Origin: an uncultured delta proteobacterium
GTDB taxonomy: Bacteria > Desulfobacterota > RBG-13-43-22
Length of the DNA: 64,000 nt
Reading direction: 5' to 3'
Assembly (NCBI GenBank): GCA_963843145.1
Contig: CAWJJC010000015.1
Span: forward strand, 18,082 to 82,081
The notes beneath the pieces are model-generated. The model worked only from the letters and a program-made list of their open reading frames with translations, was not told the DNA's origin and did no database searches. Of the stretch, positions 2,920 through 50,600 are shown piece after piece (the first letter of the stretch is position 1; every line of letters starts with the position of its first letter). Position numbers and translations under genes: made by a program.

Positions 2920-4201
2920 ATGGAACCCATTCGGGATAAAACCATCGCCATCATCGCCACCCTGGATACCAAGGGGCCGGAAGTGGCTTACCTCAAGTCC
3001 CGGATTGAACTCCAAGGGTTCAAGACCCTGATCCTGAACACCGCCATTCTGGAATGCCGAAATGAGGCGGTTCCGGAGTGCCAGTTTCTCCCGGAGGCGA
3101 TCGCCCGGCGAGGGCGGGGTGAACCTCCGGGAACTCCGCCTGCTGTGCGCGGAGAAGGGCACCCGCAGTAAAGGCATCCGGGCCATGGCCGAGGGTTCGG
3201 CCCGGCTGCTCGGCCGGCTTTACGAGGAAGGCCGTTTCCGTGGGGTCATTGGTTTAGGGGGGGCCCAAGGCACCGAAATCTGTACCTGCGCCATGCGGGC
3301 CCTGCCGTTCGGCGTTCCCAAGGTCATGGTCTCCACGGTGGCCTCCGGCAAAACCCCCTTCGGAATCTACGTCGGGACCCGGGATGTAACCATCATGCAC
3401 TCCGTGGTGGACATTCTGGGTATCAACTCCCTGACCCGGAGGATCCTGGCCAATGCCGCCGGAGCCATCGGCGGCATGTGCGACCTCGATCCCCTGGAAG
3501 CGGAACCCGACCGCCCTCGGATCGGTATTACTATTTACGGCCAGACCACCCCCGGCGGCCTGGCCCTCAAGGTCGCCCTGGAGGAGAAGGGGTTTGAAGT
3601 CATCACCTTTCATCCCAACGGCACGGGAGGTCGGGCCATGGAGGAAATGGCCGGGGAACATTTCCTCCATGGCCTGCTGGACCTGACTCCGCATGAACTG
3701 ACCGATGAACTTTTCGGAGGGATTCATGCCGGGGATTCCGAGAGAATCCTGGCGGCAGGCCGAGCCGGGATCCCCCGGCTCCTGGTCCCGGGGGCGATGG
3801 AGGTGATTACCATGGCGGAGCCGGAGACGATCCCGGATTCCCTCCGGGATCACCCGCGTCTGCCCCACAACCCCCATATCACTCTGGTTCGGGCCGACCG
3901 GGAACAAATGATTCAACTGGGCCGGGCCTTGGGGGAAAGGCTGAACCAGTCCAGCGGTCCGGTCATCGTGGCCATTCCGCGGGGAGGGTATTCCTTCTAC
4001 AACCGTCCGGGTCTCCTCTTTTACGATCCTCCGGCGGACCGGGCCTTTGTCGAGGTCCTCAAGAAAACATTACGGAGCAATATCCCGGTGGTGGAGTTGG
4101 AAGGCCACATCAATGATCCGGAATTCGGGCAGGCTCTGGTGCCGTTGTTTTTGAAGATGATGGAGCGCTTCGGAGTGCGCGGGGCCGGAGGCCCGGAGTG
4201 A
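2920..4201 (+). CDS. Tm-1-like ATP-binding domain protein (UPF0261), frameshift near 3110-3120
   Basis: N-terminal IATLDTKGPE in ORF 2920-3171 continues in ORF 3062-4201 (GLGGAQGT, ALPFGVPKVMVST, FHPNGTGG, HINDPEF). Confidence 0.85.
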
Positions 4202-14668: not shown

Positions 14669-16016
14669 ATGGATGACAACGGAAAGACCAATGAGCAACT
14701 GATCCAGGAGTTGGAGGATCTTCGCCGGAGGATTGCTGAACTCGAAATAGCAGATATCGAGCATCAGCGGGCGGAAGAAGTCATCCAAAAGAACTTAGGG
14801 TTCCGGCAAGTGTTGATGGATGCGATTCCCTCTCCCATCTTTTACAAGGATGCCGACGGCGTTTATCTTGGAGGCAATAAGGCCTTCGAGCGATATTTGG
14901 GGCTTTCGCTGCATCAAATCATGGGGAAGACCGTCTATGACATTTCACCTCCGGACTTGGCGGAGATCTACGATAGGGCCGACAAAGAGTTGCTGAATAA
15001 CCCCGGCGGCCAGATCTACGAAACTTCAGTCGCGTCATCCAGTGGAAAACGCCGCAATGTTATATTCAACAAGTCAACGTTCACCAATGCGGAAGGCCAA
15101 GTGGCCGGTCTGATCGGCGTGATCGTTGACATCACCGAGCGGAAGGAGGCCGAGGAGGCGCTGCAACAGGCACACGATGAACTGGAACAGCGGGTGGCGG
15201 CACGGACGGAAGAGTTGCGGAAGGCCAATGAGGAGTGTCATTTGGAAATCACCGAGCGCAAACGGACCGAAGAGGCGCTCCTGGAATCCGAAAACCGCCT
15301 TCGGTGGTTGAACGAACATATTCTGAACATGGTCATGGTCCTCTCTCATGACGTCAGGGGGCCGTTGACCTCCATCGTCTCCATCTTGAAACTCCTGTTT
15401 CGAGGCTCCTACGGAAAGCTGGATCAAAATCTGGCCAATACCGTCAAGGACCTCTTGGCCCGTTGCCTCCGCCTGCTCGGGACCGCGGAAGATTATTTGG
15501 GGAAAGCCTCCATCGTCGACGGCTCGGTGAAAATGAAAAGGGAAGTGCTGGACCTGCGAGAGGATATCATCGATACCGTGCTGGACGAGCTGGTTGACGA
15601 TATCACCAAGCATGAGATCGTGATCGACAATCGTTTAGGGACCATTCCCGCCGGATCCATTTCCATAAGCGCCAACAAAACCTGGCTCAAAGCCGTTTAT
15701 CGGAACCTGTTTACCAATGCCATCAAGTATGGCGGCCAGGGGTGCACCATCTCTTTTGGTTTCGAACCCGGTGAATCGCACTTCCGTTTGAACGTCTACA
15801 ACAGCGGAAACCCGATTCCGGAACCGGATCGGGGGAAGCTATTTGTTCGGTTTGGGCGAATCGAGAGCGAAGGGAAGACCCTCCCGGGATGGTGTCGGTC
15901 TCGGGTTGAGCCTCTGTCAGGAAATCATCCTCGACCACGGCGGAGAGATCTGGTACGAGGCCCTGCCCGACGGTTCGAACTTTGTATTTACCATCTCCAG
16001 GGAAGAGGGGGGTTAA
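14669..16016 (+). CDS. PAS-domain sensor histidine kinase, frameshift near 15890
   Basis: PAS, SHDVRGPL H-box, NLFTNAIKY N-box; G2 box DGVGLGLSLCQEII...NFVFTI is in a shifted frame ending at TAA 16016. Confidence 0.85.
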
Positions 16017-35472: not shown

Positions 35473-37275
35473 ATGAGAGATAATGAAAAGACCAAAGCCC
35501 AACTGATCGAGGATTTGAATGGTCTGCGCTTGAGAGTTACTGAACTGGAAAAGTTTGAAATCGAGCACAAGCAGACCGAAGGAGCTATTAAGAATTTAGC
35601 GAAGTTTCCCTCCGAAAACCCTAATCCTGTACTACGTTTGAGTCAAGAGGGTATTATCCTGTTTGCTAACGAGGCCAGTAAGGCCCTGCTCCGAGATTGG
35701 CAGTGTGAGGTGGGCGGCTATGCTCCTGCATTTTGGCACAATTTAGTTATTGAGGCCTTCAAAGATCAATCTCCGAAAACCGTTGATGTCCAATTTGGTG
35801 ATAAGTTTTATATGTTTGATATCGCCCCTGTCCCCCATACTAACTATGCCAACCTTTACGGTCGTGACAACACCGAACGCCAACGAGCGGAAGTTGAAAA
35901 TAGGCGCAACGAGGCACGGCTGGAAAGCTTGCTGAAGATATCCCAGTATCGCGCCGACTCGACTCAAGAGCTTCTGGATTTCGCCCTTGAAGAAGCCATT
36001 GCCCTCACAAACAGCAAGATCGGCTATGTTTACTTCTATGACGAGACCAAGAAAGAGTTTATTCTCAACACCTGGTCCAAAGAGGTCATGAATCAGTGCA
36101 CCATTGCCGAGCCACAAACTCTCTATCACCTCGATAAAACCGGGATCTGGGGAGAGGCCGTGCGGCAGGGTAGACCGATTATTCTCAATGATTTCCAGGC
36201 AACCCATCCATTAAAAAAGGGATACCCTGACGGCCATGCGCCCCTCTACAAGTATTTGACCGTTCCCGTCTTTTCCGATGACCGCATCGTGGGAGTTGTC
36301 GGCGTGGCCAATAAAGAAACGGACTATAACCCCTCCGATGTGCGCCAGCTCACCCTGCTCATGGACTCGGTCTGGAAAATCTTCGAACGCAAGCGGACCG
36401 AGGAGGCACTGCGAGAAAGTGAGCAGCGCTACCGCAGTTTATTTGAATCGATGGACGAGGGATTCGCCCTTTGTGAGATGGTCTATGACGTAGTCGAGGG
36501 CAAGCCCATAGACTTCCGTTACCTGGTCGTCAACCCCGCCTTCGGCAAGCTGACCGGCCTACCGGTCGACCAAGTCGTAGGACGAACGGTGAAGGAAGTG
36601 ATCCCGGGAATTGAGTCTTTCTGGATTGAGTCTTTCGACTGCGTGGTGCAGAGCGGTCGGGATGAAAGGTTTTCCAACCCCGTGGCGGAACTGGGAAAGG
36701 AATATGAAGCCTACGCCTGGCGCTCGGATGTCGGGCGGTTCGCGGTTGTCTTCAGCGACGTAACGGAGCGCAAAAGGGCCGAGGAAGCTCTCAAGGCATT
36801 GTCTCTTAAAGATGAACTGACCGGCCTGTATAACCGCCGGGGTTTCTTTACTTTGGCCGAACAGGGCTTGAAGGCGGCCCAACGGATGGGAATAGAAATG
36901 CTGGCCATTTTCGGAGACTTGGATAATCTGAAATATATTAATGATACCTTCGGCCATAAAGAAGGCGACCAAGCCTTGGTAGAAACATCACAGATACTTA
37001 AAGAAACCTTTCGGGAATCGGATATCATCGCCCGCATAGGAGGGGATGAATTCGTCATTCTGGCCATGAACAGCTTTAAGACCTCGGCCGAGAAACTGAT
37101 CAACCGGATCGAGCAGGCCTTGAATGACCATCCTCTCCAAAAAAAAGGCCCCTATAAAATCTCTCTAAGCTTAGGTATTGCCTGTTTTGATCCCCAAAAC
37201 CCTTGCTCCTTAGATGTCCTCCTGGCCGAGGCCGATAAGATGATGTATCAGAATAAACAAAAGAAGAATAGATAG
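35473..37275 (+). CDS. Diguanylate cyclase (PAS-GAF-PAS-GGDEF)
   Basis: DELTGLYNRR, RESD I-site, GGDEF. Confidence 0.93.
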   Translation: MRDNEKTKAQLIEDLNGLRLRVTELEKFEIEHKQTEGAIKNLAKFPSENPNPVLRLSQEGIILFANEASKALLRDWQCEVGGYAPAFWHNLVIEAFKDQSPKTVDVQFGDKFYMFDIAPVPHTNYANLYGRDNTERQRAEVENRRNEARLESLLKISQYRADSTQELLDFALEEAIALTNSKIGYVYFYDETKKEFILNTWSKEVMNQCTIAEPQTLYHLDKTGIWGEAVRQGRPIILNDFQATHPLKKGYPDGHAPLYKYLTVPVFSDDRIVGVVGVANKETDYNPSDVRQLTLLMDSVWKIFERKRTEEALRESEQRYRSLFESMDEGFALCEMVYDVVEGKPIDFRYLVVNPAFGKLTGLPVDQVVGRTVKEVIPGIESFWIESFDCVVQSGRDERFSNPVAELGKEYEAYAWRSDVGRFAVVFSDVTERKRAEEALKALSLKDELTGLYNRRGFFTLAEQGLKAAQRMGIEMLAIFGDLDNLKYINDTFGHKEGDQALVETSQILKETFRESDIIARIGGDEFVILAMNSFKTSAEKLINRIEQALNDHPLQKKGPYKISLSLGIACFDPQNPCSLDVLLAEADKMMYQNKQKKNR

Positions 37276-37318
37276 GGTCAGGATTTATGCCCTGTTTTTT
37301 CATTTATCCCAATAATAT

Positions 37319-38387
37319 AACGTTGGTTCTAGATTGCATATTTCTGAAGGCAGAGGTCAGGCATTTCCGGAGAGTTTGCCAACCGGGTAACGGATGAGGT
37401 CGTTGTTCCTAAGTAGCGCGCTACTTCCGCCCCTGAATATCCCCATCTCTTGACCGCCAGTTGACAGAAAAGTCTTCGGGTCTTTACTACCTTGGCGGCA
37501 CGGCTTCCGGACCGAACCAAATCCCAATCGGTTCCTTCCGACCGGGAAACCCGGGAGGCCAGTGTCCCCAGTTCAACCTTCCGAGCTTTGAGCCGGAGAG
37601 TTTCCTCTAACCGTTTCTCCGCCTGGGACATGACCTCCTCAATGAACTCGCCGCTCCCCAAAATCCGCTCATCCGAGGCCATCCGCAGTTCATGCCGCCG
37701 CAGAGACAGCACTTGCGACCAACCTCCGGCGCTGCGGATCAAACCCCCGCCAACTAAGTCAGGCCGCCGACCCATCGGGATCCCGTCGGCCACAAATCCC
37801 TCATATTCCGCTCGCGCCTTCCGCAATTTCGGACTAAAAATGGAAAGGATCGATTCGGTCTCCTGCCAGTCCCGCCCTACTTTCCCCATCAAAACCGAAT
37901 GCCCGCTCCAAGGGTATTCCTTTAATTTAGGCAAATCAGCCACCACTCCCCCCCGCAGAGGATTGAGATGAATGTAGCGCGTTAACTCCAAAAGGTAGGC
38001 CTCTTCTTCGCACACGATGGATTTATAGCGATTCTGGAAAAGGTGACCAAACCGTTTATGCCGTCGGTTGAAGTTTACTACATACCCGGTCATCAATTTT
38101 CTCATATTCGTGGAGAGAGGCTGAAGACCGGTACGTACCAATAAATGCATATGATTGGGCATCAGCGCCCAGGCATAGACCACCCACGCCCCGGCGCGAG
38201 CCCTTTCCTCCAGACGGAACAGGAAATCCTCCCGGTCTTTATGATTTCGAAAGATTTTGGTTCTTTCTATCCCTCGGGCCATGACATGGTGCAGAACCCC
38301 CGGTGCGTCTAATCGAGCTTGTCTGGGCATATTCAGAATTTATTACACTTCCCCTACTCTGTCAATGCAATTTAGAACCAACGTCCC
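37319..38387 (-). mobile_element. Y1/RAYT-like element copy 1 with ~20-bp terminal inverted repeats
   Basis: aacgttggttctagattgca (37319-37338) and tgcaatttagaaccaacgtccc (38366-38387) flank the transposase. Confidence 0.8.
37329..38330 (-). CDS. HUH Y1 transposase (REP-associated tyrosine transposase type) with DnaA_C-like HTH
   Basis: MPRQAR, HHVMARG, MPNHMHLL (HUH), GHLFQNRYKS, YIHLNP. Confidence 0.92.
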   Translation of the reverse strand: MPRQARLDAPGVLHHVMARGIERTKIFRNHKDREDFLFRLEERARAGAWVVYAWALMPNHMHLLVRTGLQPLSTNMRKLMTGYVVNFNRRHKRFGHLFQNRYKSIVCEEEAYLLELTRYIHLNPLRGGVVADLPKLKEYPWSGHSVLMGKVGRDWQETESILSIFSPKLRKARAEYEGFVADGIPMGRRPDLVGGGLIRSAGGWSQVLSLRRHELRMASDERILGSGEFIEEVMSQAEKRLEETLRLKARKVELGTLASRVSRSEGTDWDLVRSGSRAAKVVKTRRLFCQLAVKRWGYSGAEVARYLGTTTSSVTRLANSPEMPDLCLQKYAI

Positions 38388-38392
38388 GTATT

Positions 38393-39145
38393 ATGAGTGG
38401 GGGCGCGTTGAGCAACAACCGCGCCCTGCACGGTGGCGCGCTGTACAGCCTCGGGAACGCCGCGCTGGTCATGGCCACACTGGCGGATAACCTGGCCGGC
38501 AGAGGCGGCGCCATCGAAAACAGTAACAATTCGGCCAACACGCTGACCATCAACGCCTCTACCCTCAGCGGCAACCAGGTTTCCTTCGCGATTTATCCCG
38601 CCGTCACCACCCCGCTGGGCAGCGCCATCTTCAATACGGCGCACCTGGACATCACCAACAGCACCCTCAGCGGCAACAGCGGCAGCACGGCGCTGCAAGA
38701 AGACAACAGCGTCATTACGCTTACCAACGTCACCGTGGCGCAAAACCCGAATGGCGGACTCGGCTCTGACCAGAGCCCCAATACGAGTCAGGTGCGGTTG
38801 TTCAATACCTTGCTGGCCGGCAACGGCACGTACAACTGCGGACCGATCCTGTTCGGGACGTTTACCAGCCAGAACAGCCTTTCGAGCAACAACAGTTGCC
38901 TAACTTGGGTCGGCAACCAAAACCAAAACGGCATCGATCCGCTGTTGAGCCCGCTGGGCTTTCACGGCGGCCCCACCCTGACGCACATGTTGGCCGCCGA
39001 CAGCCGGGCGGTGGACGCCGGGGCCAACTGCCCCGCGCTGGACCAGCGCGGGGGCCTGCGGCCCGTGGGTGCCGCCTGCGACATCGGCTCGGTGGAGTAT
39101 GGAGCGCTCTTGCCATTGCTTTATCTGCCATTAATCTCGAAATGA
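38393..39145 (+). pseudogene. 5'-truncated duplicate of the 28400-30104 gene (tail LYLPLISK)
   Basis: High identity to 29354-30104; begins immediately after the Y1 element end. Confidence 0.85.
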
Positions 39146-40187: not shown

Positions 40188-41990
40188 ATGAGAGATAATG
40201 AAAAGACCAAAGCCCAACTGATCGAGGATTTGAATGGTCTGCGCTTGAGAGTTACTGAACTGGAAAAGTTTGAAATCGAGCACAAGCAGACCGAAGGAGC
40301 TATTAAGAATTTAGCGAAGTTTCCCTCCGAAAACCCTAATGCTGTACTACGTTTGAGTCAAGAGGGCATTGTCCTGTATGCTAACGAAGCCAGTAAGGCC
40401 CTGCTCCGAGATTGGCAGTGTGAGGTGGGCGGCTATGCTCCTGCATTTTGGCACAATTTAGTTATTGAGGCCTTCAAAGATCAATCTCCGAAAACCGTTG
40501 ATGTCCAATTTGGTGATAAGTTTTATATGTTTGATATCGCCCCTGTCCCCCATACCAACTATGCCAACCTTTATGGTCGTGACAACACCGAACGCCAACG
40601 AGCGGAAGATGAAAATAGGCGAAACGAGGCACGGCTGGAAAGCTTCCTGAAGATATCCCAGTATCGCGCCGACTCGACTCAAGAGCTTCTGGATTTCGCC
40701 CTTGAAGAAGCCATTGCCCTCACAAACAGCAAGATCGGCTATGTTTACTTCTATGACGAGACCAAGAAAGAGTTTATTCTCAACACCTGGTCCAAAGAGG
40801 TCATGAACCAGTGCACCATTGCCGAGCCACAAACTCTCTATCACCTCGATAAAACCGGGATCTGGGGAGAGGCCGTGCGGCAGGGTACACCGATCATTCT
40901 CAATGATTTCCAGGCAACACATCCATTAAAAAAAGGATACCCTGACGGCCATGCGCCCCTCTACAAGTATTTGACCGTTCCCGTCTTTTCCGATGACCGC
41001 ATCGTGGGAGTTGTCGGCGTGGCCAATAAAGAAACGGACTATAACCCCTCCGATGTGCGCCAGCTCACCTTGCTCATGGACTCGGTCTGGAAAATCTTCG
41101 AACGCAAGCGGACCGAGGAGGCACTGCGCGAAAGTGAGCAGCGCTACCGCAGTTTGTTTGAGTCGATGGACGAGGGATTCGCCCTTTGTGAGATGGTCTA
41201 TGACGTAGTGAGGGCAAGCCCATAGACTTCCGTTACCTGGTCGTCAACCCCGCTTTCGGCAAGCTGACCGGCCTACCGGTCGATCAAGTCGTAGGACGAA
41301 CGGTGAAGGAAGTGATCCCGGGAATTGAGTCTTTCTGGATTGAGTCTTTCGACTGCGTGGTGCAGAGCGGTCGGGATGAAAGGTTTTCCAACCCCGTCGC
41401 GGAACTGGAGAAAGGAATATGAAGCCTACGCCTGGCGCTCGGATGTCGGGCGGTTCGCGGTTGTCTTCAGCGACGTAACGGAGCGCAAAAGGGCCGAGGA
41501 AGCTCTCAAGGCATTGTCTCTTAAAGATGAACTGACCGGCCTGTATAACCGCCGGGGTTTCTTTACTTTGGCCGAACAGGGCTTGAAGGCGGCCCAACGG
41601 ATGGGAATAGAAATGCTGGCCATTTTCGGAGACTTGGATAATCTGAAAAATATTAATGATACCTTCGGCCATAAAGAAGGCGACCAAGCCTTGGTATATA
41701 CCTCACAGATACTTAAAGAAACCTTTCGGGAATCGGATATCATCGCCCGCATAGGGGGGGATGAATTCATCATCCTGGCCATGAACAGTTTTAAGACCTC
41801 GGCCGAGAAACTGATCAACCGCTTCGAGCAGGCCTTGAATGACCATCCTCTCCAAAAAAAAGGCCCCTATAAAATCTCTCTAAGCTTAGGTATTGCCTGT
41901 TTTGATCCCCAAAACCCTTGTTCCTTAGATGTCCTGCTGGCCGAGGCCGATAAGATGATGTATCAGAATAAACAAAAGAAGAGTAGATAG
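40188..41990 (+). pseudogene. Second, frameshifted copy of the diguanylate cyclase
   Basis: Near-identical to 35473-37275, with indels around 41210-41410. Confidence 0.85.
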
Positions 41991-42101
41991 GGGCAGGATT
42001 TATGCCCTGTTTTTTCATTTATCCCAAAGAAAATACTTATTAAAACCTACATTGGCGCATCTCCGGCCTACTGACCGGCGATCGGATTGACAGGACTTCT
42101 G

Positions 42102-42372
42102 TCACTGGACGGTCTCGCACCTGGGAAAGTCGGTGTAGCCGACTTCGTCAAACGAGTACCAGACCTTCATGTCCGCCGGCGGATTTAAAGGCCAGCCGTT
42201 GACCAGCCGCTCGGCTAGATCCGGATTGCTGATGAAGGGCCGGCCGAAAGAGATCAAATCCGCCTGGCCGCTCTGAATTGCCGCCTCCGCGGTTTCCTTG
42301 GTGTACCCACAATTCCCCATGAGCGGCCCCTCAAATACCTCCCGGAATTCACCCAGGGTCATGGGCGCCCCG
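42102..42372 (-). pseudogene. Duplicated 3' end of the OYE/alkene reductase gene
   Basis: 42122-42372 matches 49511-49761 with scattered substitutions and a different tail. Confidence 0.9.
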
Positions 42373-42389
42373 TAGATGTAGATGGGACG

Positions 42390-44153
42390 CGTAATATGGG
42401 ACATCCTATAATCATCCTGTCAAGAGGAAATATTTCATTTTGAGAAAAATAACGATTTTGATGGGATAGGATTTGGGCTCATTTTTTGAACGCACCTCCC
42501 CTTATACGCCTGACGCAGACGTGATTTATAATGATATCCCCAGTGCTCACCAACCGCGAACTTTAAACCTCAGCGTTATCAGTATCCGGCATCCCGTCCT
42601 GGACAGGCGCCCATCATCCCTTATCCAGGTTTTAAAGTTTAGTGAGCGGCCCTGATTGTCCCCCTCGAGGTCCATAAAAGGCCTCTACGTTGGTGCCTCG
42701 GGCTCGCTAAAGGGAATTAAGAGTTTTCTGCTTACTCTGGATTCAGATATCGCGGATTATAGGGCTCCTTTTTCTTCATGATCGTCCAAGCGATGATCAA
42801 GAACTTGGCCGACAGCTTGACCCACCGTTTGGTTTTGATCCCGGCTTCTTTGGCCCGCCCCTGCAATTGATCCGTGTAATGTTCGATCCAGGGTCGATGG
42901 CGGGTGGAGGCGATAAAGGCTGCCTGGTATAAGGCATAGCGCAGATCGGCTTTTCCTTTTTTGGAAATGACCGGGATCGCCGTATCCGAGGGTTTCCCGC
43001 TCCGCTCGGCGCCCAGATCCAAGCCGGCCATCTTGAGCACCTGCTTCCGGTTTTGAAAACGGAAGGGATTGCCCAGGGCGCCGATCACCTTGGCCGAAAC
43101 GTCCGGGCCAAAGCCGGGGATGGTCAGCAGATACCCATATTCCGGAAACTGCCGGCAGGTCTCCCGGATCTGTTCGTCGGTCTTCTTAATGGTCTCCCGG
43201 AGTTGCCGCAACCCGTCCACCATCACCTCGGCCTCGAAGTGGGCCCCTTCCCCCATCTCGCAACCGATGGAGTCGATGGCCAGTTGCTGGATGGTCTTTA
43301 AGCGCTGGTGCTGGGCCAGGGTCTTTCGCCCGGGCACTACCCGCTGGACGAATTGACCGAACTCCAAACCGGCCAGTTCGGAAGTATCCAGGCACCAGCG
43401 GACAATCGCTTCCACCTCCGGCCGCCCGCTAAAACGATCCAATTCGGGGAAATACTGCGCTAAGAGGTGGTTCCGGATACGCACCCGATAGCTGTGTTCC
43501 TGCTTCTTCAGCTTCTTTTTCAGCGACAGCAGGGTGCGCAGATCCCGGAGCCCCATCTCCGGGTACTCGTAGTACAGGCATTTTCCCTGGGAGATCAGGT
43601 CGGCGATATTGGCCGCGTCTTTGCTATCGTGTTTGTCCCAGCGCCCGTCCAAAAGCTCCCGGTTGCGCTTGACCGCTACCCCGGAAACCAGGACCACCAT
43701 CCGGCCGCATTTAATCAAATGCTCTCCCAGCGGCTTGTGATAGTTGGCCGTGGGTTCCAGGCCAAAGACTGCCTTCGGCAGACCCTGGGCCACCTGGACG
43801 GCCCTGACCTGGGTCAGCAACTTCTCAAATCCCTCGATGGTATTGTCAAAGATCAATCGTTTGAAAAGCGTCTTCCCGGTGGCCGTGCCCAAGAAGGCAT
43901 GGTGTTTTTCCTTGGCCACGTCGATCCCGACGATCAGATGGTCCTTCGATCCCCGGATCTCTTTCTTGAGTTGACGAAATTCCTTGAGCCTGGTATCCTC
44001 TACTTCGTTCATTGAACACCTCCTGTTTGAGAGTTGAAGTTTGGTGGAACTTACTTTTTCTCTTAACAGGAGGTTTTTTATTTGGGAAGATTATATGAAT
44101 TTTTTTTCTGGCGCAGGCTCTGGAGCCTATTCCAAATTCTGGGAATATATAAC
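42390..44153 (-). mobile_element. IS110-family element copy A
   Basis: Reverse-complement match to copy B across both non-coding ends. Confidence 0.85.
42732..44012 (-). CDS. IS110-family DEDD recombinase/transposase
   Basis: VGIDVAK, EPT, KHDSKDA, TIPGFG, SG, SKKG...LRYALY. Confidence 0.93.
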   Translation of the reverse strand: MNEVEDTRLKEFRQLKKEIRGSKDHLIVGIDVAKEKHHAFLGTATGKTLFKRLIFDNTIEGFEKLLTQVRAVQVAQGLPKAVFGLEPTANYHKPLGEHLIKCGRMVVLVSGVAVKRNRELLDGRWDKHDSKDAANIADLISQGKCLYYEYPEMGLRDLRTLLSLKKKLKKQEHSYRVRIRNHLLAQYFPELDRFSGRPEVEAIVRWCLDTSELAGLEFGQFVQRVVPGRKTLAQHQRLKTIQQLAIDSIGCEMGEGAHFEAEVMVDGLRQLRETIKKTDEQIRETCRQFPEYGYLLTIPGFGPDVSAKVIGALGNPFRFQNRKQVLKMAGLDLGAERSGKPSDTAIPVISKKGKADLRYALYQAAFIASTRHRPWIEHYTDQLQGRAKEAGIKTKRWVKLSAKFLIIAWTIMKKKEPYNPRYLNPE

Positions 44154-45217
44154 GTTGGTTCTAGATTGCATATTTCTGAAGGCAGAGGTCAGGCATTTCC
44201 GGAGAGTTTGCCAACCGGGTAACGGATGAGGTCGTTGTTCCTAAGTAGCGCGCTACTTCCGCCCCTGAATATCCCCATCTCTTGACCGCCAGTTGACAGA
44301 AAAGTCTTCGGGTCTTTACTACCTTGGCGGCACGGCTTCCGGACCGAACCAAATCCCAATCGGTTCCTTCCGACCGGGAAACCCGGGAGGCCAGTGTCCC
44401 CAGTTCAACCTTCCGAGCTTTGAGCCGGAGAGTTTCCTCTAACCGTTTCTCCGCCTGGGACATGACCTCCTCAATGAACTCGCCGCTCCCCAAAATCCGC
44501 TCATCCGAGGCCATCCGCAGTTCATGCCGCCGCAGAGACAGCACTTGCGACCAACCTCCGGCGCTGCGGATCAAACCCCCGCCAACTAAGTCAGGCCGCC
44601 GACCCATCGGGATCCCGTCGGCCACAAATCCCTCATATTCCGCTCGCGCCTTCCGCAATTTCGGACTAAAAATGGAAAGGATCGATTCGGTCTCCTGCCA
44701 GTCCCGCCCTACTTTCCCCATCAAAACCGAATGCCCGCTCCAAGGGTATTCCTTTAATTTAGGCAAATCAGCCACCACTCCCCCCCGCAGAGGATTGAGA
44801 TGAATGTAGCGCGTTAACTCCAAAAGGTAGGCCTCTTCTTCGCACACGATGGATTTATAGCGATTCTGGAAAAGGTGACCAAACCGTTTATGCCGTCGGT
44901 TGAAGTTTACTACATACCCGGTCATCAATTTTCTCATATTCGTGGAGAGAGGCTGAAGACCGGTACGTACCAATAAATGCATATGATTGGGCATCAGCGC
45001 CCAGGCATAGACCACCCACGCCCCGGCGCGAGCCCTTTCCTCCAGACGGAACAGGAAATCCTCCCGGTCTTTATGATTTCGAAAGATTTTGGTTCTTTCT
45101 ATCCCTCCGGCCATGACATGGTGCAGAACCCCCGGTGCGTCTAATCGAGCTTGTCTGGGCATATTCAGAATTTATTACACTTCCCCTACTCTGTCAATGC
45201 AATCTAGAACCAACGTT
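44151..45217 (-). mobile_element. Y1/RAYT-like element copy 2 with perfect 20-bp inverted repeats
   Basis: aacgttggttctagattgca (44151-44170) / tgcaatctagaaccaacgtt (45198-45217). Confidence 0.85.
44161..45162 (-). CDS. HUH Y1 transposase (RAYT type), copy 2
   Basis: Identical to copy 1 except R19G (MARG to MAGG). Confidence 0.92.
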   Translation of the reverse strand: MPRQARLDAPGVLHHVMAGGIERTKIFRNHKDREDFLFRLEERARAGAWVVYAWALMPNHMHLLVRTGLQPLSTNMRKLMTGYVVNFNRRHKRFGHLFQNRYKSIVCEEEAYLLELTRYIHLNPLRGGVVADLPKLKEYPWSGHSVLMGKVGRDWQETESILSIFSPKLRKARAEYEGFVADGIPMGRRPDLVGGGLIRSAGGWSQVLSLRRHELRMASDERILGSGEFIEEVMSQAEKRLEETLRLKARKVELGTLASRVSRSEGTDWDLVRSGSRAAKVVKTRRLFCQLAVKRWGYSGAEVARYLGTTTSSVTRLANSPEMPDLCLQKYAI

Positions 45218-45355
45218 ATATATTCCCAGAATTTGGAATAGGCTCCCGAGCCTGCGCCAGAAAAAAAATTCATATAATCTTCCCAAATAAAAAACCTCCT
45301 GTTAAGAGAAAAAGTAAGCATCACCAAACTTCAACTCTTAAACAGGAGGTGTTCA

Positions 45356-46636
45356 ATGAACGAAGAAGAGGATATCAGGCTCAAGGAATTCCGTCAACTC
45401 AAGAAAGAGATCCGGGGATCGAAGGACCATCTGATCGTCGGGATCGACGTGGCCAAGGAAAAACACCATGCCTTCTTTGGCACGGCTACCGGGAAGACGT
45501 TTTTCAAACGATTGATCTTTGACAATACGATCGAGGGCTTTGAGAAGTTGCTGACTCAGGTCAGGGCCGTCCAGGTGGCCCAGGATCTGCCGAAGGCAGT
45601 CTTTGGTTTGGAACCCACGGCCAACTATCACAAACCGTTGGGAGAGCATTTGATTAAATGCGGCCGGATGGTGGTCTTGGTTTCCGGAGTAGCGGTCAAG
45701 CGCAACCGGGAGCTACTGGACGGGCGCTGGGACAAACACGATAGCAAAGACGCGGCCAATATCGCCGACCTGATCTCCCAGGGAAAATGCCTGTACTACG
45801 AGTACCCGGAGATAGGGCTCCGGGATCTGCGCACGCTGCTGTCGCTGAAGAAGAAGCTGAAGAAGCAGGAGCACAGCTATCGGGTGCGTATTCGGAACCA
45901 CCTCTTAGCGCAGTATTTCCCCGAATTGGATCGTTTTAGTGGGCGGCCAGAGGTGGAAGCGATTGTCCGCTGGTGCTTGGATACTTCCGAACTGGCCGGT
46001 TTGGAGTTCGGGCAATTCGTTCAACGGGTAGTGCCCGGGCGAAAGACCCTGGTCCAGCAGCGACGCTTGAAGACCATCCAGCAACTGGCCATCGACTCCA
46101 TCGGTTGCGAGATGGGGGAAGGGGCCCACTTCGAGGCCGAGGTGATGGTGGACGGGTTGCGGCAACTCCGGGAGACCATTAAGACGACCGACGAGCGGAT
46201 CCGGGAGACGTGCCGGCAGTTTCCGGAATATGGGTATCTGCTGACCATCCCCGGCTTTGGCCCGGACGTTTCGGCCAAGGTGATCGGCGCGATGGGTAAT
46301 CCCTTCCGTTTTCAAAACCGGAAGCAGGTACTCAAGATGGCCGGCTTGGATCTGGGCGCCGAGCGGAGCGGGAAACCCTCGGATACGGTGATCCCGGTTA
46401 TTTCCAAAAAAGGAAAAGCCGATCTGCGCTATGCCTTATACCAGGCAGCCTTCATCGCCTCCACCCGTTATCGACCTTGGATCGAAAAATACACCGATCA
46501 ATTGCAGGGGCGGGCCAAAGAACCCGGGATCAGAACCAAACGGTGGGTCAAGCTGTCGGCCAAGTTCTTGATCATCGCTTGGACGATCATGAAGAAAAAG
46601 GAGCCCTATAACCCGCGATATCTGAATCCGGAGTAA
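45356..46636 (+). CDS. IS110-family DEDD recombinase/transposase, copy B
   Basis: Same motifs as copy A, slightly diverged. Confidence 0.93.
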   Translation: MNEEEDIRLKEFRQLKKEIRGSKDHLIVGIDVAKEKHHAFFGTATGKTFFKRLIFDNTIEGFEKLLTQVRAVQVAQDLPKAVFGLEPTANYHKPLGEHLIKCGRMVVLVSGVAVKRNRELLDGRWDKHDSKDAANIADLISQGKCLYYEYPEIGLRDLRTLLSLKKKLKKQEHSYRVRIRNHLLAQYFPELDRFSGRPEVEAIVRWCLDTSELAGLEFGQFVQRVVPGRKTLVQQRRLKTIQQLAIDSIGCEMGEGAHFEAEVMVDGLRQLRETIKTTDERIRETCRQFPEYGYLLTIPGFGPDVSAKVIGAMGNPFRFQNRKQVLKMAGLDLGAERSGKPSDTVIPVISKKGKADLRYALYQAAFIASTRYRPWIEKYTDQLQGRAKEPGIRTKRWVKLSAKFLIIAWTIMKKKEPYNPRYLNPE

Positions 46637-46649
46637 GCAGAAAACTCAT

Positions 46650-46880
46650 AATTCCCTTTAGCGAGCCCGAGGCACCAACGTGGAGGCCTTTTAAGGACCT
46701 CGTGCGGGACAATCAGGGCCGCTCACTAAACTTTAAAACCTGGATAAGGGATGATGGGCGCCTGTCTCAGGACGGGATGCCGGATACTGATAACGCTGAG
46801 GTTTAAAGTTCGCGGTTGGTGGGCACTGGGGAAGCTATATAAATCACGTCTGCCCGTCAGGCGAACAGGGGAGGTATGTC
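46650..46880 (+). ncRNA. Candidate IS110 bridge/seek RNA (mirror copy at ~42490-42720, minus strand)
   Basis: Conserved between copies; stem-loops gcccga..tcagggc and aactttaaaacct..aggtttaaagtt; loop segments ACCAACGT and GGGAC match the target. Confidence 0.6.
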
Positions 46881-46982
46881 CAAAAAAGAGCCCAAATCCT
46901 ATCTCCCTATATTCATTATTTTTCTTGGATGAGCTACTTTTTCTCTTGACCGGATGGTTATAGGATGTCCCATATTACGTAT

Positions 46983-47045
46983 TACGAAAACATGCTGGCC
47001 CACGGTATTTCCTGCCAGGTGCGCGTGGAGAAATACGGTCGTTGA
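46983..47045 (+). pseudogene. Duplicated last 20 codons of the second hisD-like gene
   Basis: Encodes YENMLAHGISCQVRVEKYGR*, identical to 14493-14555, with 8 synonymous changes and a different stop codon. Confidence 0.9.
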
Positions 47046-47310
47046 TCCTCGTGCCGGGAACCTGAGGCTCAAGATCTCGTTGAGGGAACGAACCATGGCG
47101 ATCATCCCGGAAGGGGCCAAACCGGGGCTGGCGCTTTTACGGACAAGAACGTCCGGTATTCGCCTTTCCTCCATCGGCGATAAAATTTCCTATGTATTGC
47201 CCCCCCAATGGGTTAAAATTCAAGGCAGTTAAAGGCCGGAGATATAGCGTAACCCTTCTTCCAAGACGGCAACCATTCTATTAGGGGACAACTCGATGGG
47301 AGATTTATGG

Positions 47311-47345
47311 AAACCCCGTTTCTCGGAAGAGAGGTGGGGTTTTTA
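47311..47345 (+). terminator. Probable rho-independent terminator
   Basis: aaaccccgtttctc-ggaa-gagaggtggggttttt. Confidence 0.6.
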
Positions 47346-47427
47346 TTTATATCCAGGTACACCGTTGAGGGGCTTTTAAACCCTAAGCTCCCCGCTCGGC
47401 CAATCGTAGATTGCTGGAGAACACCCT

Positions 47428-49506
47428 ATGCTTTCTTTTGATATTTTTTCTCACATCCGGGAATACCTGGCCAAACCTTCCCTGGGAGAAAAGGACCGAT
47501 TGCTGCGTCAGATGCGGTGGCTGGTGGAATCCGGCCCACCGGACAGGGAGGAATTTGAGGTCTTTCGGCTCCAGAAAGGTTCGGGGGAAACCCTGAAGGA
47601 GAATCCAGAGAGGGAAGCCTTGTTGCTTCTGCTGGTCGGGTATAACCGAATGGCGGGATATGACCACCCGGGGGCGGAGGAGGCCTTTGAAAAAGTGATC
47701 CCCCAAAACGTCGGAGAACAGCATCCCCCCCTCCTCTATCTCAACTGCTGTGCCGGTCTGGGCCTGGCCCTGGGTCTCTCGGAACGGGGCCTGAACTTCC
47801 AGGCTTTGCAGAAGATAGAAAGTTTGAAACCCCTGCTGGATACGCTGGACCTGCCGGCCCTGAACGGAGAGGCTCGACACCTCCGGGCCCTGGCGCTTCG
47901 CCATCTGGGCCGGAACCTGGAGGCCCTGGCGGAACTAAACCAGGCCATCGGGCTTTTTCAACAGACAGCCAATGAACAGTGGGTGGCCCAGGTCGAGGAT
48001 GCCCTGGGCCTCGCCTCCCTTGATCTGGGGCAGATGGACCAGGCGGAGCTTCATTTTCAAAGGGCCCTGGCCCGAAAGACTCGTCTGGGCGATCTTCACG
48101 GCCGGGCCTACACCCTGGGGAACTTGGGCCGCTATTACGCCAGCCAGGAGCGGGACGACCTGGCCGCTCATTATCTCCAAAGGGAACTGGAGCTTTGTGA
48201 AGAGCTGGGACATCTAAAGGGAAGAATGGTTTCCCTGCAGGGGTTGGCCCGGATCGCCTGGAGGGCCGGGCAATGGAGCCGGGCCAAGGATTATCTGAAG
48301 CGGGTGGAGGGGCTGGTCCGGCAGGTGGGCAGTCGCTTTACCGAGGCCTGCCTGTCCCTCACCCGAGTCGACTATCACCTGGCCCGAGGGGAATGGGATC
48401 AGGCCGAGCCCCTTCATCAGAAGGCCCGTACTCTTTTCGGTCCGCAACCCGGGGATCTGATCCAGGCCCAACTGGAGCTTCAGACCGCCCAGATAGCCGC
48501 CAGCCGAGGGGATCCGATCCAGGCCGAAGAAAAATTTATCCAAGCCCGGGAGATCTTCCGGCAGCTTAATAGGCCCTCCTTCATGGCCCGGGTTGAGTTC
48601 GACTGGGGGGTGTGGCTGGCCCGGGAAGACCGGCTGGATGAGGCGGCCCCGCACATCGTCCAGGCCATCAGCCAGGCCCGGTCCTTTGAGGCCGATAAGA
48701 TGGCCGCCCGCTTTGCCTCTGCCTGTCAGTCCATAGGGACCGATCACTGGCTTCAGGCCCTTTGCAAGGCCAAGGAGATGTCGGAGGCCTTGGCCGCCGA
48801 GAAAGCCCGATTTTGTAGGATGGCCGAGACGATGGTTCACGATCTAAAAAATAAGATGGTCACCCTGAACTTGGCCCTGAAACGGGCCGAGACCAAAAAG
48901 GAAAAAGGAGGGGATTTCTGGAGGTATGTGGCCATGGTCCAGGGCCAGGGCCTCTACATGGAGAGCTTACTGAAAAGCTATCTCCAGGGGCTACGGGAGG
49001 AGGAGGGTCAATGCCTGGATGCAAGCCAGGACGTGGACCTGGACCCTATTTTCGGAGAAATGCGGCTGGCTTTTTCCGTCCCCCTGGATGAGAAAAACCT
49101 GGAGCTCATTGTAAATTCCCAACCCGGGGGAATACAGGTAAAGTCTAATGACCTCTTTTTGCGCCTGATCTTGTTCAACCTGCTGGACAATGCCATCAAA
49201 TATACCCCCAAAGGGCGGGGCGCCATTCGTCTCGAGGCTTTGGAAGAAGGAGGGGTTGGTAAGATATTCGTTATCGACCCGGGCGACGGCATCCCGGAAA
49301 ACCTGCAGGAAAGGATCTTTCAAAAATGGGGTCGGGTGGAAGGGCAGGAGGTTTCCTATTCCACCGGCCTGGGACTATTCCATACCAAGATGATGGTGGA
49401 GGCTTTCGGGGGGCAAATCGGAGTTAGCAGCACCGTGGGCCACGGCAGCACCTTTTGGTTTGCTTTGCCATCAGCGAAGAAAACCAATACGAGCAAGGAG
49501 CGCTAA
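47428..49506 (+). CDS. Cytoplasmic TPR-repeat histidine kinase
   Basis: TPR helices, VHDLKN H-box, NLLDNAIKY, DPGDGI, TGLGL, GSTFWF. Confidence 0.88.
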   Translation: MLSFDIFSHIREYLAKPSLGEKDRLLRQMRWLVESGPPDREEFEVFRLQKGSGETLKENPEREALLLLLVGYNRMAGYDHPGAEEAFEKVIPQNVGEQHPPLLYLNCCAGLGLALGLSERGLNFQALQKIESLKPLLDTLDLPALNGEARHLRALALRHLGRNLEALAELNQAIGLFQQTANEQWVAQVEDALGLASLDLGQMDQAELHFQRALARKTRLGDLHGRAYTLGNLGRYYASQERDDLAAHYLQRELELCEELGHLKGRMVSLQGLARIAWRAGQWSRAKDYLKRVEGLVRQVGSRFTEACLSLTRVDYHLARGEWDQAEPLHQKARTLFGPQPGDLIQAQLELQTAQIAASRGDPIQAEEKFIQAREIFRQLNRPSFMARVEFDWGVWLAREDRLDEAAPHIVQAISQARSFEADKMAARFASACQSIGTDHWLQALCKAKEMSEALAAEKARFCRMAETMVHDLKNKMVTLNLALKRAETKKEKGGDFWRYVAMVQGQGLYMESLLKSYLQGLREEEGQCLDASQDVDLDPIFGEMRLAFSVPLDEKNLELIVNSQPGGIQVKSNDLFLRLILFNLLDNAIKYTPKGRGAIRLEALEEGGVGKIFVIDPGDGIPENLQERIFQKWGRVEGQEVSYSTGLGLFHTKMMVEAFGGQIGVSSTVGHGSTFWFALPSAKKTNTSKER

Positions 49507-50600
49507 TGGATGGGAAAGTCGGTGTAGCCGACTTCGTCAAACGAGTACCAGACCTTCATGTCCGCCGGCGGATTTAAAGGCCAGCCATTGACCAGCCGCT
49601 CGGCCAGATCCGGATTGCTGATGAAGGGCCGGCCGAAAGAGATCAAATCCGCCTGGCCGCTCTGAATGGCCGCTTCGGCGGTTTCTTTGGTGTAACCGCA
49701 ATTCCCCATGAGCGGTCCCTCAAATACCCCCCGGAATTCACCCAGGGTCATGGGCGCCCCGAGCTCGTGAAAGCCGAAGGCCAGCCCATCCAGGACATGG
49801 AGGTAGGCCAATCCGAAACGGTTCAACCGGCCGGCGGCATAGAGAAAGGTCTCTCGAAAATCAGGCGCGCCCATATCGTTGAAAATACCGTTGGGCGCCA
49901 GGTGAACGCCGACGCGTCCCGCCGGCAGAACGGTTTGCAGCGACTCCAGGATTTCCTCCAGAAACCGGAAGCGATTCTCCAGACTTCCCCCATAGCGATC
50001 GGTCCGGTGATTGGTTTTTGATTGCAGGAACTCGTCGATGAGATAGCCGTTGGCGGCGTGCAATTCCACACCGTCAAATCCGGCTGATCGGGCCCGTTCG
50101 GCGGCCTTCCGGTAATCCGCCACGATGGCGGGGATTTCCTCCGTTTCCAGGGCGCGCGGTGTCTCATAAGGCTCATTGCCGGCCGGCGTATGAATAGGAT
50201 CCCCGTTCAGCTTAATGGCCGAGGGAGCGACCGGCAGCCCCTCCTCTTGATGAAAGCTGCTGTGGGAGGCACGGCCGCAGTGCCAAAGCTGGAGAAAGAT
50301 GGGCGTGCCTTGGGCGTGAACCGCCTCCACCACCTGCCTCCAGGCCTCGGCCTGCTCGTCGGTATAGATACCGGGGGCATTCAGCCAGCCGATTCCCTGT
50401 CTGGAAACAAAGACCCCCTCCGTGATGAGAAGCCCGGCGGAGGCCCTTTGGCGGTAATACTCCGCCATCAAGGGATTGGCCAGCCGTTCCTCACCGGCCC
50501 TGGCCCGCGTCATGGGCGCCATGGCGATCCGGTTCTTGAGCCTCAAGCCTTTAAGGTCAAAGGGAGTCTGGAGAACACTCTGGCTATCGGTATTTGTCAT
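49503..50600 (-). CDS. nemA: Old yellow enzyme family alkene reductase (NemA-like)
   Basis: MAPMTRAR, QLWHCGR, HAANGYL, FGRPFISNPDL, GYTDFP. Confidence 0.92.
   Translation of the reverse strand: MTNTDSQSVLQTPFDLKGLRLKNRIAMAPMTRARAGEERLANPLMAEYYRQRASAGLLITEGVFVSRQGIGWLNAPGIYTDEQAEAWRQVVEAVHAQGTPIFLQLWHCGRASHSSFHQEEGLPVAPSAIKLNGDPIHTPAGNEPYETPRALETEEIPAIVADYRKAAERARSAGFDGVELHAANGYLIDEFLQSKTNHRTDRYGGSLENRFRFLEEILESLQTVLPAGRVGVHLAPNGIFNDMGAPDFRETFLYAAGRLNRFGLAYLHVLDGLAFGFHELGAPMTLGEFRGVFEGPLMGNCGYTKETAEAAIQSGQADLISFGRPFISNPDLAERLVNGWPLNPPADMKVWYSFDEVGYTDFPIH

Follow-up and report, generated by a model that had tools for sequence, protein, structure and literature searches.

An IS110-family insertion sequence with a candidate bridge RNA matching the terminal inverted repeats of a Y1 transposase element

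Introduction

The question raised by this locus is how a 4.6-kb palindrome, made of two IS110-family insertion sequences (IS) around a Y1 transposase element, has arisen and what directs these IS to the ends of that element. The locus is contained in a stretch of 64,000 nucleotides of an uncultured delta proteobacterium (assembly GCA_963843145.1, contig CAWJJC010000015.1), hereafter called the window, i.e., C15:18082-82081 of the genome under study (G000), of which C5, C12, C15 and C27 are contigs. Positions without a contig name are those of the window. The answer that we hold to be highly probable is the following: the IS carry a recombinase of the bridge (seek) RNA type, the target guides of which are written against the terminal inverted repeat (TIR) of another mobile element, and they have inserted in both TIRs of one such element, a TIRtron. 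The case is carried by direct observations of the anatomy of the locus, of the insertion site, of covariation in the RNA structure and of the covariation of guides with target and with donor.

Relatives of the recombinase were collected from 41 related genomes (11 with a match at E <=1e-40, G000 included), from metagenome contigs (62 loci) and from species-representative genomes (38 loci). The latter loci belong mostly to metagenome-assembled genomes (MAGs) of Thermodesulfobacteriota or «delta proteobacterium», including Smithella, and also to Chlorobiales and a few others. L-numbers (L002, L030, etc.) designate the loci of the relatives.

Results

Anatomy of the palindrome and insertion site

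The repeat search of the window gives an inverted repeat that spans 42390-46979. Its arms are of 1570 nt (96% complementary), 65 nt (98%), 41 nt (93%) and 47 nt (81%), the main arms being 1025 nt apart, and the comparison of one arm with the other by BLAST gives 94.5% identity across 1787 nt. A first-pass annotation of the window, made from the sequence alone, had recognized this palindrome, an IS110 copy in each arm and a second copy of a Y1 element at the centre. All three are confirmed: both recombinase genes are intact (426 aa, PF01548 and PF02371, NF033542 above its cut-off), and the centre has a Y1_Tnp match and is 99.8% identical to copy 1 (37315-38389) across 1070 nt. The palindrome consists of a 1,087-bp Y1 element, each perfect 31-bp TIR of which is split by a 1.75-kb IS110-family IS.

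From left to right are found: the displaced outer half of the left TIR of TIRtron copy 2 (42390-42400), which mirrors 46969-46979 and matches the outer halves of intact TIRs (C12:95421-96494; window 38385-38395); IS copy A (42401-44151, minus strand, 1751 bp including one copy of the GT core at its right end); the inner part of TIRtron copy 2 (44152-45216, minus strand), with inner TIR halves at 44152-44171 and 45197-45216 that each include the GT/AC core; IS copy B (45217-46968, plus strand, 1752 bp); and the displaced outer half of the right TIR (46969-46979), mirroring 42390-42400. The perfect TIR of copy 2 is thus read as 42390-42400 plus 44152-44171 on one side and as 45197-45216 plus 46969-46979 on the other. 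The boundaries of both IS were set from intact TIRs and from relatives. The outermost 11 nt of either palindrome arm are Y1 element and not IS110; the IS limits first placed at 42390 and 46979 were 11 nt too far out, and the inverted repeats first given as 20 bp measure 31 bp in full.

The register of the insertion was obtained from uninterrupted TIRs of the same genome and from 44 relatives with a located right end, according to which the IS copies terminate at ...TAGGATGT. Uninterrupted Y1 ends (both ends of the C12 element and the right end of copy 1, window 38365-38395) read ATGCAATnTAGAAnCAAC-GT-CCCrTATTA; at the latter, the sequence GAACCAACGTCCCG is present at 38375-38388, as first annotated. 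Occupied TIRs read, at all three IS110 copies of the genome, ...ACCAACGT followed by the left IS end TATATATTCCC..., then the right IS end ...TTATAGGATGT followed by CCCnTATTACG. The insertion point is ACCAAC-GT-CCC, the left junction ACCAAC-GT-TATATA and the right junction GGAT-GT-CCC. GT, which is present once in intact TIRs, is the sole dinucleotide that the two junctions share with the intact site, so that the core is GT and not CG as first proposed. The same junction register is found in 39 relatives with both ends located. Insertion is site- and orientation-specific, without target duplication and with a shared dinucleotide, i.e., as expected for the IS110 family. With a target placed in an inverted repeat and a fixed orientation of insertion, the two IS copies end up facing each other, which gives the 4.59-kb palindrome.

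It must be noticed that a TIR-like remnant of 17 nt (outer half, core and one base) lies at 42373-42389, between the end of an oxidoreductase fragment (42372) and the palindrome; on direct reading, its reverse complement resembles the outer TIR half. The GGGACG at 42384-42389 does exist and belongs to this separate remnant; it had been taken for the half displaced by copy A.

The bridge-RNA module

A profile of the region downstream of the gene detects a module 3' of the recombinase gene in 55 distinct relatives, down to ~45% protein identity, and exactly three copies in G000. In copy B it is located at 46652-46833 (plus strand) and, from nhmmer, RNAalifold and pair counts, comprises a closing stem, a target-binding arm and a donor-binding arm. 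In copy A it is located at 42534-42717 (minus strand; nhmmer match C15:60798-60615, E 1.5e-51; row L018_A of the alignment). The two arms are predicted by RNAalifold from the 36-sequence alignment A2. Over 31 fixed pairs in five helices, 97.7% of the cells are standard pairs, versus 89.1% with shuffled partners (0 of 500 shuffles reach the observed value); 17 of the 31 pairs have changes on both sides (104 cells in the 36 relatives). When partners are slid by 1-3 columns, pairing falls to 21-45%. It must be kept in mind, for this and for the shuffle test on guides given below, that kin relatives lead such tests to overstate independence.

The closing stem is UUCCC/GGGAA, 46652-46656 with 46829-46833. 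On direct reading, it is swapped for UUCGGCGAG/CUCGCCGAA in a more distant group; as the alignment is out of register there, this stem was left out of the pair counts. In the target arm, an internal loop lies between the stem GCCC/GGGC and the hairpin GAGGCC..GGACCUC; its 5' strand ends in ACCAACGU and its 3' strand contains GGGAC. The donor arm has two stems, GCUCAC/GUGGGC and ACUUUAAAACC/GGUUUAAAGU, and an inner stem-loop; its loop strands are UGGAUAAGGGAUGAUG (5') and GGAUACUGAUAACGCUGA (3'). A non-coding RNA with two internal loops, the strands of which match target and donor, is what is known for the IS110 family. ACCAACGT (46674-46681) and GGGAC (46706-46710) had been noticed beforehand, on both sides of an internal hairpin and within an outer stem; they do occupy the two sides of an internal loop between GCCC/GGGC and GAGGCC..GGACCTC, and this loop is part of the structure backed by covariation. 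The folding and covariation analysis suggested at that stage gave compensatory changes, and single-sequence folds that were no better than shuffles (values below).

In the minimum-energy fold of 330 nt, the left guide pairs with GGUUGGUG (46815-46822). This pairing was rejected, the spacer being constant while the guide varies in relatives. Variants of the module were also observed. L058 has an extra module, reduced to the target arm and with a different left guide, ~300 nt ahead of the complete one (2787-2896 and 3201-3386, respectively). L034 has kept the target arm alone (2807-2894), followed by unrelated sequence. L002 and L027 (89-94% protein identity) have an insertion of ~25 nt exactly at the position of AUAAC, the right donor guide (A2 columns 163-185).

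Target guides and occupied sites

The left target guide, ACCAACGU (46674-46681, plus strand), is identical to the left flank at 45209-45216, i.e., to the top-strand left target plus core, and would pair with the bottom strand. The right target guide, GGGAC (46706-46710, plus strand), is complementary to GT+CCC. The left guide was compared with the left flank at the seven variable positions upstream of CGT. The mean number of matches is 5.65 of 7 (n=37 distinct pairs), versus 3.75 for shuffled guide/flank pairings (sd 0.18, maximum 4.51), and none of 10,000 shuffles reaches the observed value. The 55 distinct modules had given 42 pairs, 37 of them distinct, after seven modules in which the search pattern missed the hairpin (L031, L054, L061, L062, L064, L068, L069), five with less than 12 nt of left flank (L003, L033, L058, L070, L074) and one with N (L055) had been left out. 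Among these, L062 and L031 follow the trend by eye and L061 and L068 agree poorly. The automatic end calls of L050, L051 and L053 look out of register and were kept uncorrected.

The clearest cases of agreement between guide and flank are L002 (AACTACGT), L030 (TTAACAGCGT), L035 (TTATGGACGT) and L057 (TCATGAACGT), to which may be added L004/L006 (AGAAACAACGT), L007 (ATGGACAACGT), L036 (AGAACCTACGT) and L056 (TAACTCCGT). Guide and flank have changed on several different backgrounds. On the right side, 37 of the 44 located right ends are followed by CCC, and past GGATGT the relatives share nothing else. The match of the right target guide reaches 7-9 nt in L002, L026, L037, L038, L045, L046, L047 and L058.

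In the genome, all three full IS copies abut a TIR in the same register and orientation: the two copies described here and a third one (C12:248107-249884), which is 97% identical to copy B. Two IS relics (C27:15587-15711; C12:~247880-247945) also abut TIR sequence in that register and orientation. The flanks of other genomic copies were one of the checks proposed in the first-pass annotation. Its central proposal, i.e., a natural bridge recombinase programmed against the ends of another mobile element, is upheld by these three full copies and two relics in TIRs and by a left guide that tracks its flank.

Some sites have a particular arrangement. C27:1-21000 is a cluster of Y1 and IS110 fragments, in which the relic at 15587-15711 is a 126-nt remnant of an IS110 right end, to which an outer TIR half is still attached. 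At C12:247880-247945, immediately upstream of the third IS110 copy, the right-end relic and an outer TIR half are joined to a truncated Y1 gene at its middle. The left end of Y1 copy 1 (37315-37339) lacks CCC and shows ACGT followed by TATAT, the 5 nt with which the IS110 left end begins. The Y1 end at C5:81875 also lacks CCC and shows ACGT followed by ATTATGG, with a loss of 5 nt. From their sequence, these two ends could be footprints, deletions or sites that escape insertion. In L093 (a Smithella MAG), the IS110 left end directly follows ...TATAGGATGT, which is the right end of another copy; the junction represents a tandem of two copies, head to tail, or else an insertion into a site that resembles the donor.

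Donor guides and ends of the insertion sequence

The candidate left donor guide, GGGAUG, on the 5' side of the donor loop (46748-46753, plus strand), matches AGGATG at the right IS end. It has changed together with that end in L037/L038 (GGCATG/AGCATG), L039 (GGTATT/AGTATG), L060 (GGAATG/AGAATG) and L064 (GGAGTG/AGAGTG), i.e., in five sequences with four end variants, L037 and L038 sharing one. The candidate right donor guide, AUAAC (46790-46794, plus strand), is on direct reading complementary to GTTAT, i.e., core plus left IS end. In relatives it reads [A/G]UAAC and the left IS end is constantly TATAT. Its distance to the closing stem is 5 nt, the same spacing as for the right target guide. 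The ATAACG first pointed out at 46790-46795 is present; the CG-TTAT circle junction proposed with it has to be replaced, the core being GT and AUAAC complementing GTTAT.

At the right IS end, TTGACC (46946-46951, plus strand) reads as a predicted -35 box. The TATATA of the left IS end (45217-45222, plus strand) would be the -10 box once the ends join in a circle. The right end-left end (RE-LE) junction then reads TTGACN, 17 nt, TATATA (TTGACC in copy B), and the distance from TTGAC to GGATGT is kept in 44 of the 44 located right ends of relatives. In the integrated form, the promoter scan gives no sigma-70-like site ahead of the recombinase gene on the plus strand. The joined ends would form a promoter across the circle junction; sections 4 and 12 of PMC11187229 report junction promoters for the IS110 family.

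The recombinase gene

The recombinase genes, 42732-44012 for copy A (minus strand) and 45356-46636 for copy B (plus strand), are both intact open reading frames of 426 aa. Copy B displays the motifs GIDVAK, LEPT, DKHDSKDA and ERSG. The two genes differ at 55 of 1281 bases; among the differing codons 36 are synonymous and 17 non-synonymous, i.e., there are 17 amino-acid differences. Judged by these sequences, A and B are diverged, functional-looking copies and not a fold-back artefact. Both proteins match PF01548 (E 6.8e-24) and PF02371 (E 6.3e-17), i.e., the N-terminal DEDD/RuvC-like domain and the C-terminal domain with the SG motif, and both match NCBIfam NF033542 («IS110 family RNA-guided transposase») with 158.3 bits for a cut-off of 140. 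The recombinase aligns to the IS621 transposase chain 8wt6_A (E 4.4e-13) across the regions of the catalytic motifs. By sequence, the element belongs to the IS110 family.

The non-coding ends of the IS are of 139 nt (left) and 332 nt (right). In the left one, a hairpin of the 5' untranslated region (45294-45350, plus strand) is predicted to pair with the ribosome-binding site of the recombinase gene (single-sequence fold z -5.87, 0 of 200 shuffles as good), and its sequence is conserved in relatives. The ribosome-binding site lies within the 3' arm of this hairpin. The 5' arm recurs inverted in the right IS end (46935-46959), beside the -35 box; this recurrence covers 25 nt (84%), its two arms being 76 nt (left) and 10 nt (right) away from the respective IS ends. 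Hairpin and inverted repeat may provide a control of translation that links both ends of the transcript.

The target element

The Y1 gene of copy 2 (44161-45162, minus strand) encodes a TIRYT-like protein of 333 aa. It matches Pfam Y1_Tnp with E 1.6e-9 and reaches 61 bits with NCBIfam REP_Tyr_transpos, below the cut-off of 80. On direct reading of the translation, the HMH and RY motifs are present. It is thus a RAYT-related Y1 HUH transposase, as expected for TIRtron/TIRYT, and it is flanked by long TIRs and not by hairpins of repetitive extragenic palindromic (REP) type, as expected for a TIRtron. Without the IS copies, the element is 1,087 bp long, with the stop codon inside one TIR and the start 35 nt from the other. 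A promoter-like site of the Y1 gene (TTGACA, 17 nt, TAAATT; 45197-45169, minus strand; promoter scan) begins at the inner TIR edge. CTGTCAA ahead of the TIR was also observed in most Y1-adjacent relatives.

Copy 1 (37320-38395, minus strand) has an intact right TIR with the unoccupied target ACCAACGTCCC at 38377-38387; its left end is without the outer half. A third full Y1 element, C12:95421-96494, is 89% identical and both its ends are uninterrupted. The inner 20-mer of the TIR has ~9 copies in the genome at <=3 mismatches, among 17 matches at <=5. A REP-like high copy number of the TIR was considered and rejected, as the real copies number ~9.

From sequence comparison, the target element fits a TIRtron encoding a TIRYT-type transposase, as described by Di Nocera et al. 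2013 (PMC3733652, in its accessible part), and subclass 2.1 of Quentin et al. 2018 (bioRxiv 10.1101/279083, likewise in part). In the accessible text of these sources, TIRtron/TIRYT likewise comprise a RAYT-like Y1 gene in low copy number and long TIRs, one of which is overlapped by the 3' end of the gene. By contrast, the repeat motif TGGGACGT (GGGGACGT/GGGGACGC in L015 and L041) fits only partly the GGGGWSAS given there, and the match to a C-terminal helix-turn-helix is not significant (Bac_DnaA_C, E 0.22, 12 bits, far below cut-off).

Flanking genes

The left flank of the palindrome (42102-42404) contains the last ~100 codons of an oxidoreductase of the Old-Yellow-Enzyme type, of which a full paralog is located 7 kb away (49503-50600); homology to that paralog ends at 42372. 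The right flank (46980-47050) contains the last ~20 codons of another gene, which is kept in the related genomes G002 and G005. In either gene, the truncation is at the end next to the palindrome. A GAF-PAS-GGDEF gene is duplicated (35473-37275 and 40188-41990, 98-99% identity), both copies closely precede a Y1 element copy, and the duplication stops within a few bases of the left end of Y1 copy 1.

Discussion

Points against the proposed reading and range of the target

Several results weigh against the reading of a bridge-RNA recombinase directed to TIRs. Folded as single sequences, the 330 nt of the non-coding end (z +0.36), the 190-nt module (-1.58) and its two arms (-1.70 and -1.05) do no better than their shuffled versions. 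The region 42000-47400 has no Rfam family match at E up to 1, except a chance-level one to a long non-coding RNA (E 0.96). As a consequence, the whole weight of the case for the RNA structure is on covariation. Contigs of RNA libraries (from other samples) are fragments of relatives and give no evidence of transcription. On the target side, the left guide matches the flank poorly in L067, L041, L013, L028 and L051, the right target guide is just 5 nt in copy B, and perfect targets are still unoccupied in the genome, so that activity may be low or past. On the donor side, the changes of the right end in L065 and L007 (the recombinase gene of L007 carries a stop codon) are unmatched by the left donor guide, which moreover has A at the core T; for the right donor guide no covariation is seen, the left IS end being invariant.

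The range of the target is also at issue. Among distinct insertion contexts, a Y1 gene is found beside the junction in 17 of the 66 that have 300 nt or more of left flank, and in 13 of the 48 that have 1200 nt or more; this search was made by tblastn with one Y1 protein at E <=1e-3 and misses diverged or decayed genes. The statement that the IS targets the ends of Y1 elements holds, as a consequence, for G000 and about a quarter of the relatives. In Y1-adjacent relatives, usually either 49-61 nt separate the Y1 start codon from the junction or the gene abuts it with its 3' end. The other 49 contexts have no detectable Y1 gene and show a loose TIR consensus that reaches past the guide; three Y1-less contexts (L060, L009, L041) have an inverted partner 53-261 nt away. 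By their sequence, these contexts look like gene-less repeats of the TIR family. Gene-less TIR monomers and dimers are described in the accessible part of Di Nocera et al. 2013 (PMC3733652). Judged from the sequences compared, the target of the clade is best described as TIR-family repeats, which in G000 are the ends of complete Y1 elements.

Alternative explanations

That the palindrome is an assembly join, i.e., that copies A and B lie in TIRs of two TIRtron copies linked through the 1,065-bp Y1 repeat, is unlikely. Copy 1, which is on the same contig and has one odd end, differs from the Y1 centre at 2 of 1070 nt (99.8% identity), both differences being within ~100 nt of one end. The outer flanks are not contiguous DNA and consist of 3' fragments of unrelated genes, which together with the near-identical Y1 repeat on the contig suggests either a rearrangement or an assembler joining two half-occupied elements. 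The genome is in 32 contigs, with an estimated contamination of 6.9%. Nevertheless, the arms differ by 5.5%, which argues against a fold-back artefact, and no feature of the sequence contradicts the palindrome as assembled. Among public runs, none had more than 17% of the sampled sequence words, and their contigs are short pieces of relatives with no informative span of the palindrome junctions. An orthologous empty site was not found when the right flank was searched in G001, G002, G003 and G005: G001 has the histidine-kinase gene with a different upstream neighbour, and the other right-flank matches are a 66-nt 3' gene fragment. If the join were artificial, each IS would still be in a TIR, and only the statements «both ends of one element» and «palindrome» would fall. 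The outer TIR halves, intact and perfectly symmetrical, and the truncated genes on both flanks would also suit a single composite unit (IS110-Y1-IS110), moved by the Y1 enzyme acting on these halves or by recombination between the IS; the genome holds no second composite copy, and neither target duplication nor matching empty site was found, hence this explanation is given hardly any weight.

If the protein, or a TIR-bound host factor, chose the site, the matches in the non-coding end would be incidental, e.g., captured pieces of target. The right guide is short (5 nt) and nearly invariant, and a weak flank consensus beyond guide reach (about -17 to -21) could be protein or structural recognition, as the accessible part of bioRxiv 10.64898/2026.03.19.712850 proposes for ISPpu10. 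From base composition, the 11-mer ACCAACGTCCC is expected ~3.2 times in the genome by chance, and three unoccupied occurrences were found, two of them in TIRs. A single match is as a consequence weak evidence. What counts is the covariation seen when relatives are compared: 4-5 variable positions of the left guide follow the flank, and in the stems around it compensatory changes preserve pairing. Moreover, the matches occupy the same loop positions as in experimentally tested members of the family, as far as the accessible descriptions go. Site choice by protein is thus considered very improbable. The long non-coding region downstream of the recombinase gene, with a bridge RNA in the right end as in IS1111 elements, could point to membership of the IS1111 group. 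Here the guide order is bottom strand first, the reverse of tested IS1111 members, the recombinase has 426 aa versus 330-350 aa, and repeats of 11-13 bp at 7 and 3 nt from the ends are absent; in addition, section 6 of PMC11187229 mentions a 3' non-coding region in some IS110-type elements. The IS1111 placement is thus quite unlikely.

Comparison with known systems

In the target loop, the bottom-strand match is 5' of the top-strand match, as in the IS110 group. The RNA is 3' of the recombinase gene and not in the upstream non-coding region usual for that group. Neither a top-strand match in first position nor a transposase of 330-350 aa, as in IS1111, is found. Subterminal repeats of 11-13 bp at 7 and 3 nt from the ends were not found either; the sole inverted repeat near the ends is the one at 76 and 10 nt. 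From its sequence, the element fits neither a canonical IS1111 nor a canonical IS110, and its guide order and recombinase size side with the IS110 group. Section 6 of PMC11187229 describes a subgroup of 395-455 aa recombinases within IS110, into which 426 aa falls, and sections 6 and 9 give 330-350 aa and top-strand match first for IS1111.

The catalytic organization (DEDD plus serine recombinase), the target and donor loops, the guide order and the inclusion of the core agree with IS621. IS621 targets REP sequences. In the part of PMC11208160 that is accessible, its left guide pairs with the bottom strand and its right guide with the top strand, with the core in each, and the native right target pairing is short too (4 bp). 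In contrast, the IS621 RNA is in the left end, upstream of the gene (here downstream), the chain is of 328 aa in structure entry 8wt6 (here 426 aa), and the core is CT (here GT). According to section 12 of PMC11187229, ISEc21 shares with the present element the bottom-strand match first, the junction promoter and the lack of target duplication; it targets a conserved stretch of IS3-family transposase genes, and its relative ISMch6 is naturally redirected. It differs by its upstream non-coding region, its 358-aa transposase and a coding-sequence target instead of a terminal repeat.

Elements of the IS1111 group (IS4321/IS5075, ISEc11, ISPa11, ISKpn4, ISPst6) resemble the present one in that the RNA is downstream of the gene and the targets are repeats of other elements. 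IS4321/IS5075 reportedly target Tn21-family terminal repeats, to judge from the title of a reference. The group differs by the opposite guide order, the subterminal repeats of 11-13 bp and the transposases of 330-350 aa, three features absent here. REP sequences and attC sites are listed among its targets in section 4 of PMC11187229. That members of the IS110 family land in repeats or genes of other elements is already established.

Proposed mechanism

Each IS would encode a DEDD/serine recombinase and, downstream, a bridge (seek) RNA of ~180 nt with two internal loops, which would be transcribed, bind the recombinase and direct recombination. In the target loop, the 5' strand ACCAACGU would stand for the top-strand left half-site plus the GT core, and the 3' strand GGGAC would complement the core plus CCC. 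In the donor loop, GGGAUG would recognize the right IS end and AUAAC would complement the core plus the left IS end. The IS is predicted to excise as a circle, the RE-LE junction of which would create the TTGACN-17-TATATA promoter. The recombinase-RNA complex would then pair circle and TIR through the shared GT core and recombine them without target duplication. The mechanism (bridge/seek RNA) is a known one, and the locus is a clear natural example of it rather than a new mechanism.

Significance

It can be imagined, though we regard it as doubtful, that the whole IS110-type clade with a 3' bridge RNA (Thermodesulfobacteriota, Chlorobiales, other MAGs) is a specialised parasite of TIRtron/TIRYT repeats, with a left guide that co-diversifies with the repeat and a right guide fixed on a conserved motif of GGGGAC type. 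If this were true, TIR variants without CCC, e.g., the left end of copy 1 and C5:81875, would be escape alleles; the occupation of both repeats would disable the Y1 element or make a composite still movable by the Y1 enzyme; and two transposon families would be engaged in a natural arms race guided by RNA.

No link between IS110-family elements and TIRtron repeats was found in the literature as far as the accessible parts of the sources go, and published target logos, phylogeny and lists of 3' non-coding regions may include this lineage. The link would thus be, as far as the literature search shows, the first one, in parallel with the known link between IS110 and REP, and with it the two RAYT-type repeat systems share one kind of secondary invader. 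The finding also accounts for a 4.6-kb palindrome that could otherwise pass for an assembly artefact or a hairpin-forming locus. The lineage joins the guide order of the IS110 group with a 3' RNA, which bears on the movement of the RNA between element ends during the IS110/IS1111 split. Finally, the relatives, dozens of loci from several phyla, form a well-resolved natural series in which a change of insertion site goes with a change of the left target guide; it can serve directly as a list of the guide/target pairs that an enzyme with a GT core tolerates.

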